From assembly GCF_035084215.1 (NCBI RefSeq), contig NC_090340.1:3100001-3164000 (forward strand): a DNA stretch of 64,000 bases. Reading direction: 5' to 3'. Position 1 is the first letter of the stretch, and each line of letters opens with the position of its first letter. The translations under genes were made by a program, and so were the position numbers. This DNA comes from Heptranchias perlo (lineage: Eukaryota). Shown here piece after piece: positions 55,145 to 64,000 of this stretch. The notes under the pieces were generated by a model, which saw only the letters and a list, made by a program, of their open reading frames with translations, had not been told where the DNA came from and made no database searches.

Positions 55145-55398
55145 TTGATTGAAGCATTACTGTTTAACACAACATCAAAGTGTTAACGTTTTTTAGCGTC
55201 AGAATAAATTGGACGGACAGTGAGCTGTTTTCCCGCGGAGCCACACACCATATGGAATTGACATTTTTTCATGTTCTAATTGACAAAATGTAGCATTATC
55301 TCACGACTGTGCGGATTAACCTCCCGGAAAAGAACCAGTAGATCTAAATTGAAATTGTTATTTATCGGTAAACTACTAACCAATCTATCCCTGTGGAA

Positions 55399-55456
55399 AT
55401 CAATTCCCCCGCTCCCTCTCTCCGTCACTCTCTCTACCTGGGGATTTTCTACACAG
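55399..55456 (+). other. Candidate leader exon of the IgSF gene, lacking an in-frame ATG
   Basis: Phase-1 donor CAG/GTATTC at 55457; frame reads (I)NSPAPSLRHSLYLGIFYT, joining in frame to V-AQDVS; ATC at 55399 where ATG would be expected. Confidence 0.35.
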
Positions 55457-55661
55457 GTATTCGACCGATTTTACTGGAGCAGAGAATTGTCATCAATTAT
55501 AGAACGTTCGTATTTCTCTTTGTTCTGTTTGATTGATCACGTTTTAAATTGTTTCCTTTATATTGCGCTATTCTGCTTGTCTCAGTTATGTTCTGTTATT
55601 AATTGTTGGAGTTATTTTGTGTTTAAAGTAAATATTGTGCTACTGTTTTTATTTCCGACAG

Positions 55662-55973
55662 TTGCGCAGGATGTTTCTCGGAATGTCCCTGAATCTGTAA
55701 TGGCGAACAGGGGTGACAATGTAACCTTACACGGCAACGTATCTGGATTCCAGACCAATGAGTACATGAATGTTTACTGGCGTAAGAGCGATTCCAATCA
55801 AACCGTAATAATAGAGTCTGACAACCGCGTAATATCTCGTGTTCGATCGAATGGAACATTTTTCCTTCATCTCCATACTGTGAGTTTCCAGGACTCTGGA
55901 GCCTATCATTGTAGAGTGGCAGTTGGGAATTTCGATTATGTTGATGGATGCGGCACAGAACTGATTGTATGTG
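55662..55973 (+). CDS. Germline-joined VJ-type Ig variable-domain exon of an antigen-receptor-like/SIRP-like IgSF gene
   Basis: Acceptor TTTTTATTTCCGACAG, donor GTAAGT, 312 nt phase 1-1, open. VAQDVS..GDNVTLHG..VYW..LHLHTVSFQDSGAYHC..DGCGTELIVC: DSGxYxC and GxGTxLxV motifs in one exon. Confidence 0.92.
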
Positions 55974-56044
55974 GTAAGTGGCTTTCCATGAAAACCTAAA
56001 TGTTGTTCAGGCACTTATGACATCATGAAAGACAAGAGAATGGC

Positions 56045-56084
56045 TGGATGGACGGATAGATAGATAGATAGTAGATAGATGGAT
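56045..56084. repeat. (GGAT/GATA)n microsatellite
   Basis: TGGATGGACGGATAGATAGATAGATAGTAGATAGATGGATG. Confidence 0.85.
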
Positions 56085-57739
56085 GAAAATATTGGTTAAC
56101 AGAGCTGACGTTCAACTCTAGAAATACTACGCATCTTCCTTAATAACATTCGATATAGATTAAAATCGTCACAGTTTCTACCTGGGAAATTAAGTGAATA
56201 CTTATATATAGGAGTTCTCTATCAAAAGCTGATACAGGTGATAAGTTATTTAATTTTGGGGTGTTCCGCGGCTCTTACGCCGAATTAAAAGTGGATGAGC
56301 GGCAGAATACCCCATAAAACTCTCTGCGGACCATGTACAGCACAACACACGCTGGCATTCGAGTCTGGAGGCAATCTGGCCAAATGAGAGAGACGCCCCC
56401 CAAAAATACAAATCACTCAAAGGAAGAATGGCAGCGGAAAGGAAAGCAGTTTGATCGGTGTGAAAGTCGCCTTAGGCGTCAGCGCAACACGCAGGTCCGC
56501 ATCGGGAACCGGCCACTTTCCTGTTGACTACAATTGGATGGCAAATCGGGCAGGTGTCTTTGCTCTTTTGGGCTGCGGCCAAAGGCAACCCGTGCATGGA
56601 AGTCAATGGGAAACGAAATCCAGCGGGTGACCCGCTAGCGTCAGTCTTTGTCCGTCTAGACTTGGATTTCACCCAAATATGCTACTTTAAAATTCTTATT
56701 TGGACATTGAGCCTCCAAAAATGCTTCTCATCATTTTGACATTCTAAAAAAGTGAACCGAGACTTGTTTTTTAGACAGATAAATAAAAATGAAGTGAAGC
56801 AACAAATAAGTGCACCATAACGTAATCCAATTATTGCCCCTCACTTGCAATTGCTAATTCATCTCATTGGTGAATGAAATCATAATGTTGCTCCAGAACT
56901 CACTTGGGTAGATTTTCAACTTGCGGCCAGGGTGTAAAACCGGTATTGGCAATGGGCCTTTTATAGAATCTCACCCCAGTTGAAATTGGCCCCGATGATA
57001 CCGGTTTCAAATAAGCAGGCTCTATCATATAAGGTTATTTTCGGAAGCGTTTTGCCTCCCACTTATTCCCGTTAATTCGTCTTTTTGGTGAATGAAATCA
57101 TAAAGTTGTTGCAGAACTTATATGGGTACATTTTTAACTTGCCGCCAGGGCCCAAACCTGACATTGCATGTGATCCGTCTATTCTAAAAACCTCCCCAAT
57201 TTAATATCCATTGACATCAAATCGTACCATTTTCCACTTAGGCCCAGGGTCCATATATATATCCTCTCAGTGAGCGACTTCTCCTCAAGACTAACTGCTT
57301 TAAGCTAGTATTAGGCTTTCGCTGGCCTTAGTAAACATTTTTTAGCGGTAATTGTGAAGAACCACTTGATATTTCCATGGGTTCTCCCCGTCTCCTCGGG
57401 TAACTTCGGGCAGAGACCGGCGGAACCAGAGAAAAACGGATTTTGTGGGATTTCCATTGGTCTCCCGCAGACACTGCGCAGCCTCATGGAATTTCACGGC
57501 CCAGACAACAGCATTAAGTTAATTAACCTGCTCTCAATTGGGAGAATCTGAAGAGGGACAATATAGACATTTGTAGACCAGACAAAATAGGGAATGTTGT
57601 TTGCTGTGACAAAGACTGTACACAACTTCAAGATAATATAGATAGGTTGGAAGATTGGTTAGAATCAAGTCAGGTGAAATTTAACGTGGAGATATATGAG
57701 TTAATGCTTTTGGGGAGGAGGAATGAGATCGAATTCAAC

Positions 57740-58150
57740 TGTTAGTGTAGGGTTATAGTTATCTTAGTGTTTAGTAATGCGGAGATGTCGACTAATAATC
57801 CTGACAACATCAGATCAAATCTCAATTTTGCAGTTTGAAAATGTTAGATCAGTTTTAAAAATATGGAAATAAAAAGCTGGGATGAGTGGATTGTCGAGAA
57901 ATCTTACTGGTGCACGAATGTTCTTTAGGGAATGAAATCTGCCATCCTTACTCGGTCTGGCCTAAATGTGTTTCCAATCCTACACCAACGTGGTTGACTC
58001 TCAATTGCCCTCTGAAGTAGATTAGAAAGATAACCTGTTGCCTGAAACCGCTACAAAGGTGGCCCACAAACACAGTCTCCGGGCAATTATAGATGGCCAA
58101 TAAATTATGGCATTGCCAGTGACACACACATTCCAAGAATGAATTAAAAA
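57740..58150 (+). mobile_element. tRNA-derived SINE ending in a family-B LINE-like tail
   Basis: CTTTAGGGAATGAAATCTGCCATCCTTACTCGGTCTGGCCT..TGGTTGACTCTCAATTGCCCTCTGAA; tail GGGCAATTATAGATGGCCAATAAA..GCCAGTGACACACACATTCCAAGAATGAAT. Confidence 0.75.
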
Positions 58151-59273
58151 CAAATCATAGACAAAAATATTAAAGAGCAAGCCGATTTAGGAGTTTGGGC
58201 AGCAATTTCAAAAGATGGCAAAAGGAATAGGCAAAGCTTTAAAAACAATCAAATTCAATCGACTCCAGCGGAGAGTCTCCTGGTCCGTCGCCGTAACTCT
58301 GGCTGGAGACTGGCTCAACCCGTGAAGAAACGTTCTCCCTGTCAGCAGCCGGCCGGTTATACCGTTTCACTGCCCGTGTCCTGCGCGAAACGAATCATAA
58401 CTCCTGCTGAATTTTAGGGCCCTATTTTTTATATAATGGAGCATACGGATCAAAGCAATGGCGTCCCAAAATCTATAAAAATCATTGGGCAGACTCGATT
58501 TAGAAAACTGTGTACAGCTTTAATGGGATTACGTTTGGGAAAGATGTCAAGACGCTGAGAGGTTTCAAAAGATTTTCACCAACATGGGATGAAGGCTGAG
58601 ACGGTTTAGTTATGAGAAGAGACGACAGAAATTGGGACATTATTCCCGAAATCAGTGAGATTTAAGAGATCTGATTGAACGTCACCAGATGTCGATCCCA
58701 CGGAATTTCAGTGCCTTTAGTTCCACTGAGTATTTTCCAGGGCGGCTTGTTTAGGAATTGGGTTCATTTGGAAATCAGCGAGATGCTGTAGAGGGAGCAG
58801 AGTTCAATTGGTACTCTAGTGGGTAAATTCAAATAGGCAGAAGAGCTTTTCTCATTTGCACATGTTTTTTGGATCATGCGATATTTTATTTGGAGTAAAG
58901 ATTCATCAACAGTTGAATGAAAGGCCCTTCTCCAATCAAAATCACATTTCCTCAAAATCGATTTTAAACATCAAGCAAATCTAGTTTTGTTCTGTGAAAG
59001 TTTTGAGCACAGATTTAACTACGTAGCAGAAGCTTTTTTTTGTCTCGCACGCATTTTGTTCATAACATAGCATGAACCTATTGTATCTTGCGTTTACTAA
59101 TTGTTGCTTTAACATATTGACAATACAAACATCAACTTTACGTAATGTCCGTTCTAATGTGATCCTAGCTGAACCTTAAAATGATTGTTGACTTCCTTGC
59201 TGCTCTTTGGATCGCAGTCGAATTTGGTTCACAATTAAATTCAAAATAACATTTATTTCTATTTTCTCAACAG

Positions 59274-59579
59274 TTCCTCCGACGCCTTTGCAGATTTCCT
59301 CCACTGTGTTTAGAAGTGGGTCATCGACTGCTTTGACTCTTGTGTGTAAAACAGCTGCGTTTTTCCCGGAAAAGCTGAACATCAGTTGGTATAAAAATGG
59401 AGCCGAAATTCTGAGCGGGATGGAACGAATCAAAGACCGGAACCCAGCGGGACTGTATAAAGTTTCCAGTTATCTCAATCAAAAAGGTTCGTGTCAGAGC
59501 GGAACCAATTATACCTGTCTGGTATCACACGTCTCTCTCCAGACTGGAGCCAGTGTTCATTACATTTATCAAACTTCAG
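59274..59579 (+). CDS. Ig C1-set constant-domain exon of the same gene
   Basis: Acceptor TTTCTATTTTCTCAACAG, donor GTAAGT, 306 nt phase 1-1, open. LTLVCKTAAFFPEKLNISWYKNG..GLYKVSSYL..YTCLVSHVSL: C1 hallmarks (Cx4FFP, W, YxCxVxH). Confidence 0.95.
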
Positions 59580-59724
59580 GTAAGTTTTCAAGTTTAAAAA
59601 CAGCTATGTATAAATTCGAAAATGCAGACAAAAATGTTTTGGAATAGTTGCAGATTTTCTCCGCATTTCTTCGAATTGTTGATTCTGCTGAGATCCGTCT
59701 CCATGGATTGCCGAAACTATTTTG

Positions 59725-60692
59725 TGCCCAACCATCTTCAGCTGCTTCATCAATGACCTTCCCTCCATCATAAGGTCAGAAATGGGGATGTTCGCTGACG
59801 ATTGCACAGTGTTCTGTTCCATTCGCAACTCCTCAGATAATGAATCAGGCCATGCCCGCATGCAGTAAGACCTGGAGCACATCAAGGCTTGGGCTGAGAA
59901 GTGGCAAGTAACATGCACGTCAGACAAGTGCCAGGCAATGCCCATCTAAAACAAGAGAGAGTCTAACCACCTCCTGTTGTCATTCAACGGGATTACAATC
60001 GCCGAATTCCCCGCCATCAACATCCTGGGAGTCACCATTGACCAGAAAGTTAACTTGCCAGCCATATAAATAATGTGGCTACAAGGGCAGGTCAGAGGCT
60101 GTGTATTCTGTGTCGAGTGACTCACCTCCTGACTCCCCAAAGCCTTTCCACTATCTACAAGGTACAAGTCAGGAGTGTGATGGAATACTCTCCACTTGCC
60201 TGGATGAGTGCAGCTCCAACAACACCCAAGAAGCTGGACACTATCCAGGACAAACCAACCCACTGATTGACACAACATCCATCACTCTAAACATCCATTC
60301 CCTTTAACACGACAACACTGTGGCTGCAGTGTGTACCATCGACAGGATGCACTGCAGCAACTCCCCAAGGCTTCTTTGACAGCACCTCCCAACCCCGCGA
60401 CCTCCACTACCTAGAAGAACAAGGCCAGCAGGCACGTGGGAACAACACCACCTGCACCTTCCCCTACAAGTCATACACCACCCTGACTTGGAAATATATC
60501 GCCGTTCCTTCATCGTCGCTGGGTCAAAATCCTGGAGCTCCCGACCTAACAGCACTGTGGGAGAACCTTCACCACGTGGGCTGCAGCAGTTCAAGAAGGT
60601 AGCTCACCACTACCTTCTCAAGGGCAATTAGGGATGGGCAATCAACGCTGGCCTCACCAGCGACGCCCACCTCCCATGAAGGATAAAAAAAA
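59725..60692 (+). mobile_element. LINE family B 3' fragment, decayed
   Basis: GGGATGTTCGCTGACGATTGC, ORF 60075-60266, family B tail and A-run. Confidence 0.92.
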
Positions 60693-61417
60693 GATGGAGG
60701 TCGGGTTTGCCGCCTCAATAAATTGATGAGAACTTCCGGAAATGCACTAACCTGAAACTTTCTGACCTGTTTTACTCTTAAATCAAGCGGAATTTCGACA
60801 AATCTTTGCATGGAAGCCCTCTCCCATCCTCTTGGGAATTCCAGACTTTACCGTCTGCAATTTCGGCGGCGAATTTGGCCTTTTGTCCGAGGTTTGCGGG
60901 ATTATCCTCCGAGGGGGGAGAACAGGACAACCTTGAGCTAAAATTCTGCCCTTTTGTATTCAGACCTTTGCCGGATGTTGTCTTCACCAAACAAGCCTTG
61001 CATGAATCTAGTTTTAGTCGTCAATTCACTCAGTATACCGGCAGCATTCTATAAGGCTGGTAACAGATTTATTTCTTTGTATAAATTTCGTGATTGTGCG
61101 AAATGAGGGAGAAGTTTTGTTTGCATAGAAATAATTGCTTAAATGTCAGTCAACCATATCTCAGAATTACAGCATTTCAATCAAATTATTTTGTCAAGAA
61201 AATGCATTAGCCGCACTCATGTTTTGTTGTATATCTGGATTCTCCGCGCTTCAAGTGTTAGTCATTGACATTATTTTTGTGCGCAATTCCAAATATGACC
61301 GTTAATTTGAAACTTCCGTTGCAAATACGTTTAATTAAGCTGGCGGGAATAAACCGTCAGAAGCCTGAAATCTTTCACCGTCGGGGTAAAGAAAAGTTGT
61401 GACTAACAGTGATTGGG

Positions 61418-64000
61418 AACATAGAAATAAAGGAAGTAGGCCATTCAGCCCCTCGAGCCTGTTCCTCCATTAAATTAGATCATGGCTGATCTGTATCCTA
61501 ACTCTATCCACCCGCCTTGACTCCACATCCCTTAATACCCTTGGCTAACAAAGATCTATCGCACTCAGATTTAAAATTATTAATTAGGTAGCATCTACCG
61601 CTTTTTTTGTGGGAGAGGGTTCTGAACTTCCAACACCCTTTTCGTGAAGAAGTTTTTCCTAACTTCTCTCCCGAATGGCGTGGCTCCGACTTTAAGGCGA
61701 TGGTCCCCTTTCCTCGACTCCACCACCAGCGGAAATGCTTCTTTCTATCTACCCTATCAATTCCTTTCAAAAACATGAAAACCTCAATCAAATAATCCCT
61801 TAACCTTCTGCATTCCATGTAATACAACCCTAGTTGATGTAATCTCTGCTCATAATAATACAAACTTCGAAGCTCTGTTAACATTCAGGGGAGACTGCTT
61901 TGCACTCCTTCCAAGGCCAATGTATCCTATCCAATGTGTGTTGCCTAGAACTGTACACAGTAGCCCAGATGTGGTCTAACCAGGGCTTTCTATAGCTGCA
62001 GCAAAACTTCCTCTGCTTTACATTATCGCCCTCTGGTTATAAAGGCTAATGTTACTTTAGCAGTTTTGATTATTTTTTGCACCTGACTACAACGATTTAA
62101 TAATCAATGTGGAAGGACACCTAAATCTCTTTGGACCTCCATTGTTCGTAGATTGTCACCATTTAAAAATATTCGCATTTATCTTTTCTTGGTCCAAAAT
62201 TGTTGACCTCACCCTTAATTGCATTGAAATCGAGCTGCCAACGCTTTGCCCACTAACTTAATCTATCAATGTCTCTTTTTAATTTCATGCTCCTGTCTGC
62301 ACGACTTATAATGCCCACAGTCTTTGTGTCATCGGCAAACTTAGATATATTTCTCTCTATTGAGTTATCTAAGTCATTAATCAATACAATGAATAGTTGA
62401 GGCTCCAGCACAGATACCTGTGGACAACACCAGTCAACTTCCAATTCGAGTAAATTGCCGTTATCCCCACTTTCTGTCTTCTACTGCCTAATCAATGTCT
62501 AAAACAGATCGATAATTTGCCTTCAATTCCATGAGCTTTAAATTGAGCTACCATTCCCTTATATGGATTATTATCAAATGCTTTCTGGAAGTCCATATAC
62601 ATTACATCCGTAGACATCCTTCAGTTACTTGCTCAAAAAATTCCATTAGGTTCCTTAGACATGACATCACTTTTACAAATCCATGTTGGCTCGCTTTAAT
62701 GAACTCAGATTTCTCTGCGTGCTAAGAGACTCTGTCATTAATTATCTATTCCAATAAGTTCTCCACATCAGATGTTAGACTAATAGGTCTATACTTTCCT
62801 CGTTTCTCTCTCACTCACCTTTCTTAAATAACGGAGTTACATTTGAAATTCTCCAATCTAAAGGGAGAATTCCTGAAAGAGAGAGCTTTGGAAGATTATG
62901 GCTGAAGCGTTTTCAATTTCCTCACTTGCTTCCTTTAAACCCTGGGGTGGAAACGTTCAAGTGCCGTGGATTTGTCAGTCTTTCGTGGCATCACTTTTTC
63001 TAATTCTGTTTTCTTGCTCACGGTAATTTTAGTGATTTCCAGTCCTTGATTCATTATTCGTTTGGTTGGAATATCAGGTATATTAACCTCTTCCTTTGTT
63101 GTGAAGTCTGATGCAAAGTAATTATTCAACAAGCCAGCTATTTCCTTTTTTTCATTTTCAAGATTACACGCAGCTGTTTTCAAAATGTCCACAACATCCT
63201 TGACTGCCCGTTTTCTTCCAAAATAATTGGAAAAATGTTTTGTATTAATCTTGCCATCCCTCACAAATTCCTTTTCCTAGTCTCTTTTTGCAGCTCTTTC
63301 TATCTTTTTTTCTTCCTTTGCTGTTCTTTATATCTCTCCCGTCCCCTGGATCTACGCGATTATTTTCATCTTTGTATGCTCTTTCCTTTAGTTTTATGTT
63401 ATCTCTCACTTCTTTTGTCGACCATGGCTGTTTTATCTGGTAATTAGTGCTCTTGGCCCTTTCGGGATATACACTCTATTAAGCTATTTTTTTTGAAAAC
63501 CTCCCACTGTTCATTTGTAGTTTTATCCGATAAGAGCTTTGGCCAGTTTGCTGTCGTCAGCCCCTCTCTCATCCCGTTAAATTTGGCCTTACCAACATCT
63601 GCCCCCTTAGTAACTGTGTTAATTTTCTCCACTTCAAACCTAACATTACATTCCATTATATTATGATCACTCTGAGATAATTACCGATGTCTGGCTCAAT
63701 ACTCATTATTACATCTAGTACGAACTGCTCTATTGTTAATTCTACAATATATTGCTCCAGAAAACAATCTTCAATGCGCTCAAGAAATGTATTACCTTTC
63801 TGACTCCGCTCTTCCCTATCTATATGAAAATTAAAGTGTCCTATTAAAACGACACTGATTTTGTTACAAGCCTCTGTAATCTCTGAATTCATACATTCTG
63901 ACACTTCATTGCTGCTATCATGGGGCCTGGAGACAACGCTCATTACAATTTAAAGTCCTCTCTTATTTCTCGAATCTAACCATAGAGTTTCTGTTGATTG
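61418..64000 (-). mobile_element. Old CR1 LINE, long decayed copy running off the window
   Basis: Minus ORFs 61504-61884, 62253-62444 (KFADD), 62935-63264, 63656-63943 (LIGHFN). Confidence 0.9.

Follow-up and report, generated by a model that had tools for sequence, protein, structure and literature searches.

What is the two-exon, immunoglobulin (Ig)-like gene at positions 55662..59579 of the stretch analysed here (the window, 64,000 nucleotides of the Heptranchias perlo genome, C18:3100001-3164000 of the shark assembly), in which a V and a J segment lie in one exon ahead of a C1-set exon, and does it still work? Our answer, which we regard as probable, is that it is a likely non-functional copy from a large germline family of cartilaginous fishes (chondrichthyans) with the order leader, VJ, C1 and transmembrane (TM) exon, whose members are predicted to be paired immune receptors. 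The parts of this copy are listed below, with the deletion placed by comparison with two neighbouring paralogues, copies A and C.

55437..55438, plus strand: deletion junction; about 460 bp are gone, comprising the likely promoter region, the 5' untranslated region, the ATG and leader codons 1-16 (placed by blastn and by aligning the window pairwise to copies A and C)
55438..55456, plus strand: leader exon remnant of 19 bases (six codons and a phase-1 base) with a GT donor
55662..55973, plus strand: joined VJ exon, open, AG and GT ends, phase 1 on both sides; V-set match; predicted model with pLDDT 85.5
59274..59579, plus strand: C1-set exon, open, AG and GT ends, phase 1 on both sides; C1-set match
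59580..64000, plus strand: intron after C1, extending past the window end
C18:3166994-3167107, beyond the window: uncharged TM exon, donor CT where copy C has GT
C18:3177550-3177659, beyond the window: cytoplasmic exon with LTYATL
C18:3178872-3179036, beyond the window: last exon with LNYCAV, IVYGQV and stop

A sequence-only reading of the window had proposed two open, phase-1-flanked exons with canonical splice sites, and both the positions and the AG/GT ends were confirmed. The first exon matches the V-set profile (PF07686; 42.3 bits, cut-off 26) and ends in GCGTELIV, which fits GxGTxLxV. V and J thus share one exon, as had been claimed, and a scan of window positions 55300-59700 found no site resembling a recombination signal sequence (RSS); the same scan of 52 family V exons gave one weak match only. 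No sign of an earlier RAG joint was seen, which leaves the term "germline-joined" unsupported. The second exon is a true C1-set domain (PF07654; 48.3 bits, cut-off 21) with all three marks of that set: its BC loop reads FFP, the B-strand Cys and C-strand Trp have 13 residues between them, and CxVxH is present. An excerpt of PMC2785349 gives these marks as (F/Y)(F/Y/H)P in the BC loop, 13 residues from Cys to Trp, and xVxH. Two features had been overlooked, the truncation of the leader exon by a deletion and a Gly at the position of the B-strand Cys in the V domain, which also carries an extra Cys within its GxG bulge and has a short C'-D region. The best fold match of the predicted V model is a skate variable new antigen receptor domain (VNAR; Z 15.4, root-mean-square deviation (rmsd) 1.8, 99 residues aligned), probably because the C'-D region is short in both.

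TM and tail exons had been suspected beyond position 64000, and they begin at C18:3166994, 3177550 and 3178872. Because an uncharged TM exon and two tyrosine-motif exons follow C1, the window gene is a membrane receptor gene and not a light chain, as had been argued from its V signatures. All three tyrosine motifs of the tail (LTYATL, LNYCAV and IVYGQV) are of ITIM type (for immunoreceptor tyrosine-based inhibitory motif). Between the TM and tail exons, a further candidate exon of 35 bases was discarded, as the horn shark model P0067 joins the TM exon straight to the next one.

The expectation of tandem paralogues proved correct on a large scale. Copies A and C lie beside the window, and about 100 C1-bearing copies are found in two clusters on one chromosome, or about 80 distinct ones without near-identical blocks. 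All 55 V matches and 102 of the 117 C1 matches fall on C18, the latter count being a lower bound as 150 of 290 C1 candidates were scored. Family sites on this contig span 2.70-5.97 Mb and 14.54-15.63 Mb, with one gene at 19.02 Mb. Blocks repeated at spacings of about 800 kb and 300 kb are 98.5-99.9% identical in five of five pairs tested; they may reflect haplotypes that were left uncollapsed, or else duplication in the very recent past:

C18 3.46-4.02 Mb and 4.26-4.85 Mb: near-identical blocks
C18 14.68-14.75 Mb and 14.98-15.05 Mb: near-identical blocks

Detailed comparison covered 66 copies and set aside the blocks of near identity as well as most of the weak fragments. Median identity is 37.5% among V domains and 48% among C1 domains, and in the copies examined a single C1 exon separates V from TM. 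The V exons keep the B-strand Cys in 49 of 52 cases and GxG[ST]xLxV in 41; the spacing from Trp to Cys is 41-44 in all but one, and [FW]GxG occurs once. The gene near 19.02 Mb (19.00-19.03 Mb; L080, L141 and L142) is a lone divergent member of inhibitory type, 3.4 Mb from cluster 2, and possibly an old locus.

Two kinds of TM exon divide these copies. Forty-five are followed by an uncharged TM, 17 by a second type that ends in a D/N-H/Y motif, and four have no TM in reach. Within the second type an Arg stands near the start of the TM in 14; the remaining three (one a fragment) lack it and weigh against our reading. ITIM-type tail exons are in reach of 22 of the 45 uncharged-TM copies, a floor given that the spans searched were mostly 10 kb, versus none of the 17 second-type copies, and in these tails an ITIM mostly stands ahead of a TxYxx[LV] motif. 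On a C1 tree made by a quick method from 99 columns, 15 switches of TM class were counted (mean after shuffling, 15), at least 11 of which well-supported branches require, so that ectodomain subfamilies hold both TM types. In three pairs of one inhibitory and one activating copy, the rate of nonsynonymous change (dN) of V is 0.004 and lies below that of their own C1, as expected under exon exchange.

According to an excerpt of PMC3533184, paired receptors have ectodomains that are alike, ITIM-bearing tails versus short tails with an Arg or Lys in the TM, genes clustered on one chromosome, and leukocyte expression with binding of adaptors and phosphatases; the same text pairs the Arg TMs of LILRA with FcR-gamma. 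The present family has matching ectodomains, ITIM and Arg-TM forms, and clustering on one chromosome, and so fits that definition in these three respects, its signalling being predicted. By analogy with families of LILR, PIR and SIRP type, from which this functional scheme is inferred, the V domain of uncharged-TM members would bind a ligand and the tail would damp leukocytes by recruiting SHP-1/2 to ITIMs and to switch motifs (ITSM). Arginine-TM members would signal through an adaptor of the FcR-gamma type that carries an activation motif (ITAM). Exchange of V exons would keep activating members matched to inhibitory ones, and birth and death would leave many broken copies, the window copy among them.

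The family is not confined to this shark. The sequence-only reading had taken the window gene for a non-rearranging one, probably from a little-known VJ-C1 receptor family of chondrichthyans, and relatives did turn up in chimaera, in sharks and in both rays and skates. Searching with a profile built from six full-length models gave 70 protein matches, 69 of which are chondrichthyan (chimaera, horn, carpet and ground sharks, rays, skates), with the family models on one chromosome-sized contig per species. A wider profile gave 25 chondrichthyan matches at E 2e-51 or better and then distant Ig proteins only. An index-free search listed 150 matches, down to 173 bits, and ten of ten looked up among the most divergent short ones were chondrichthyan. 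No bony-vertebrate member appeared in the profile searches, nor among those ten; SIRP-alpha scores 109 bits and could therefore not appear among matches listed down to 173 bits. Several subfamilies are common to sharks and batoids, and both TM classes occur in other sharks and in chimaera, the Arg type included. Four models (P0017, P0138, P0152 and P0175) have V, TM and tail and no C1, an NKp30- or PD-1-like layout, and are either splice forms or separate genes. Database names are inconsistent, with SHPS-1-like the commonest; others are tapasin-like, light-chain-like and B7-H6-like.

The family is apparently undescribed: no description was found in the literature searched, and an earlier mention is possible, with likely papers and supplements outside that search. 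Excerpts of PMC6795676 and PMC3716694 contain nothing on this VJ-C1 family, and the joined-VJ genes named in part of PMC11599192 are CD79, NITR, SIRP, CD8, NKp30 and PRARP.

Which known receptors are its relatives? The alternative that fares best concerns ancestry only and is compatible with the reading above: the family could be the cartilaginous-fish branch of the SIRP family, with one C1 domain, another locus and arginine-dependent adaptors. We consider this possible, if somewhat unlikely. SIRP-alpha and SIRP-beta1 likewise combine a joined VJ with C1-set domains, lie in clusters, and come both as inhibitory members with several cytoplasmic tyrosine motifs and as activating ones whose TM is charged. 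The tail of SIRP-alpha bears tyrosine motifs similar to the repeated ITIM and TxYxx[LV] units of the family; its d1 has a C'D loop, to be compared with the short C'-D region of the family V; and SHPS-1-like is the name most often given to family members. Language-model features of the full-length model P0016 have SIRP-alpha clusters as their nearest neighbours (0.96), whereas the ectodomain alone has no named SIRP cluster among its neighbours. The family profile gives SIRP-alpha 108.8 bits over V-C1, against 97 at best for light chains, but this is a sum over three domains and UrIg2 reaches 133. In the fold search, matches are tied among the B7 family, nectin-like proteins, MHC and Ig chains; SIRP-gamma (Z 13.4, rmsd 6.0, 196 aligned) falls below B7-H6 (Z 15.5, rmsd 4.4, 191 aligned) and only ties with NKp30 (Z 13.4, rmsd 2.5, 99 aligned, 28% identity). 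A profile search of the Protein Data Bank (PDB) with V exons left SIRP and NKp30 outside the top 60 of a list dominated by multi-domain chains.

Further differences lie in architecture and locus. SIRPs are V-C1-C1 proteins with a TM of the DAP12-binding type, encoded by a handful of genes, unlike the family with its one C1, an Arg near the TM start and about 80-100 genes. The SIRP locus adjoins NSFL1C on human chromosome 20, and the family lies elsewhere, beside NUDT21 and AMFR, although SIRP may have moved later. In the shark, genes with a SEP domain are found on C22 and C3, and the C22 gene was read as NSFL1C; the 180 kb around it hold no Ig exon. This stretch (C22 26.60-26.78 Mb) has no SIRP-like exon, and the NSFL1C-type gene is flanked by exons that we take to be of an MFSD2-type transporter and a TRH-receptor-type G-protein-coupled receptor. 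According to an excerpt of PMC9652883, SIRPs are reported only from mammals, birds and lizards and are of unknown origin. The family is thus predicted to work like SIRP, while membership in SIRP is not established by the profile, language-model and fold searches, which disagree.

A second alternative concerns the window copy itself, which the sequence-only reading had treated as a working gene. We hold that it is most likely dead, because the ATG and most of the leader are deleted and the TM donor is lost. Copy A (V at C18:3078773, 74% identical in V to the window copy) and copy C (V at C18:3204728, 77% identical, 49 kb away) both retain the roughly 460 bp that the window copy lacks (C18:3078075-3078544 and C18:3204042-3204500), and the window flanks are collinear with both on each side of a clean gap. 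No in-frame Met was found upstream of the leader remnant and no second leader match anywhere in the window, and the TM donor reads CT in place of the GT of copy C. Copy C has an open model from ATG to stop and is intact; copy A has an arginine-type TM and a frameshift in C1. Dead copies are common in the family: in at least seven of the 66 examined, a frameshift splits the V or C1 exon. The horn shark model P0067 clusters with copies A, window and C (98% support), has the full leader as copy C does, and shares its junctions at leader, TM and tail with the window lineage; this checks the exon model and makes the leader ancestral.

Several points weigh on the other side. The frame of the window copy, leader remnant included, is open for 341 codons albeit without a start, with every downstream exon open and in frame; an alternative in-frame GT lies 15 bases past the lost TM donor; and the deletion is known from one assembly. 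The ratio of nonsynonymous to synonymous rates (dN/dS) between the window copy and copy C marks the former neither as dead nor as working (V 0.61, C1 0.94, TM 1.08), the value for V resembling the pooled family pN/pS of 0.70 and 0.60, all from few sites. The gene could then be functional if the deletion came from an error in the assembly or marked a null allele, or if an unseen upstream leader exon were used together with the downstream GT of the TM exon. Given two independent lesions, the collinear flanks, a window devoid of a second leader and the frequency of dead copies, we judge this unlikely. A look-up of the V exon listed no RNA data set. Three contig sets presumed to be RNA left the V exon uncovered and showed no splice joints; they gave one partial paralogue contig of low depth over the C1 exon and one over that of the P0002 gene, and were not used as evidence.

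The lineage of copies A, window and C has a peculiarity of its own. Only their V exons (three of 52) lack the B-strand Cys, and all three have a Cys inside the GxG bulge, which none of the other 49 has. As the three share one common ancestor, loss and gain count as one event. The F-strand Cys of this lineage may bond to the bulge Cys, or it may link chains. P0067, the horn shark orthologue of the lineage, is modelled as a leader joined to C1 with no V exon, by exon skipping, loss, or a missed Cys-less V. In copy C (L025:452-1037) the reading frame stays open from the ATG through the 207-base leader-V intron and on into the V exon, so a retained intron would preserve it. An orphan TM and last-exon remnant of the lineage lies on the minus strand at C18 ~5.99 Mb (L102:2631-6161), the far end of cluster 1.

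A third alternative, that the family is orthologous to PRARP or to amphibian VJC1 genes, as relics of an antigen-receptor precursor possibly mentioned before, seems to us improbable. PRARP (Fu, 2019) is reported to have a VJ-C1-TM-ITIM layout, the same as that of the family. Several VJ-C1 genes are on record from tetrapods in part of PMC10751288, which places PRARP among VJ genes of the major histocompatibility complex (MHC); the family is flanked instead by NUDT21 and AMFR, and the searches above yielded no bony-vertebrate member. A link to the MHC finds no backing in those flanking genes or in the class I search, in which none of 43 matches fell on C18, though all lie on small scaffolds (C1050, C1057, C1101, C1105 and others), many in tandem; a class II search found no match anywhere in the assembly. 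PRARP also comprises one or two genes and is not known to have activating partners, unlike this large paired family.

Other single-exon VJ genes differ in more obvious ways. UrIg and UrIg2 are shark genes with a single-exon VJ, a split leader and C1 domains, and are among the highest family-profile scores in the PDB (a sum over four domains). As described in an excerpt of PMC12227049, they have 3-11 C1 domains, are single genes of the MHC or the Ig/T-cell receptor (TCR) complex, are expressed in liver or gill and are unpaired; identity with them was ruled out, as the family has one C1 and not a VJ with three or more, and is paired. NKp30 (NCR3) has an Arg TM and a single-exon VJ with G-x-G-T-x-L-x-V, and of the V-domain fold matches it is the one with the highest identity (28%, a value shared by one MHC class II C1 row). 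It has no C1 and no ITIM forms and is MHC-linked, and identity was ruled out by the C1 exon and the uncharged TM of the window copy. Teleost NITR, chicken CHIR and mammalian LILR/PIR are likewise large, fast-evolving paired clusters of ITIM and charged-TM genes with many pseudogenes, at different loci; they are not known to have a C1-set domain. A special closeness to the pre-RAG ancestor, for which non-rearranging VJ-C1 genes are the proposed architecture, was not borne out, since neither the structure searches nor the profile searches set Ig or TCR apart.

Finally, the gene could be an Ig light chain joined in the germline, or another antigen-receptor gene that was once rearranged. The VJ-C1 layout, the split leader, some "lambda light chain-like" database names and the first places in Foldseek (about 21% identity) might point that way. 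A light chain of this kind would be a secreted VJ-CL protein with FGxG and no TM, and the reading is very improbable given the TM and ITIM exons, which already refuted it, the near absence of [FW]GxG, the Trp-to-Cys spacing and the empty RSS scan of positions 55300-59700.

Around the family, cluster 2 adjoins NUDT21 and AMFR, which are neighbours on human 16q. Exons at other cluster edges are presumably of OSGIN and GST type, with weak Pfam support, and neither the flank at 2.59-2.69 Mb nor the surroundings of 19.02 Mb yielded a marker gene. No further family exon was found elsewhere in the 64-kb window, where 1-55000, 59726-60700 and 61400-64000 hold mostly retroelement fragments that look like long interspersed nuclear elements (long open reading frames; heavy contig cover at 59726-60000). 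The translation of L159:7053-7325 seems to resemble that of fragments of large-subunit ribosomal DNA.

The window copy itself is of little weight; copy C and the inhibitory/activating pairs are worth study. A dozen unrelated database names conceal the family, which may bear on the origin of SIRP-type receptors. In a bolder form, which we put forward as a doubtful possibility, some 80-100 germline VJ-C1 paired receptors would predate the chimaera-shark split and form the main variable system of natural killer and myeloid cells. They would be the branch that survived and expanded from the VJ-C1 lineage in which SIRPs arose, and would link these to the non-rearranging antigen-receptor precursor, with the V disulfide of one sub-lineage rewired from B-F to F-G. 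Single-exon VJ genes are, according to part of PMC12227049, the main evidence on what RAG invaded. A pan-chondrichthyan cluster with dozens of VJ-C1 receptors offers many sequences with which to root trees of VJ genes and of SIRP origin, and the family is a concrete candidate for the variable innate-cell receptors of sharks.

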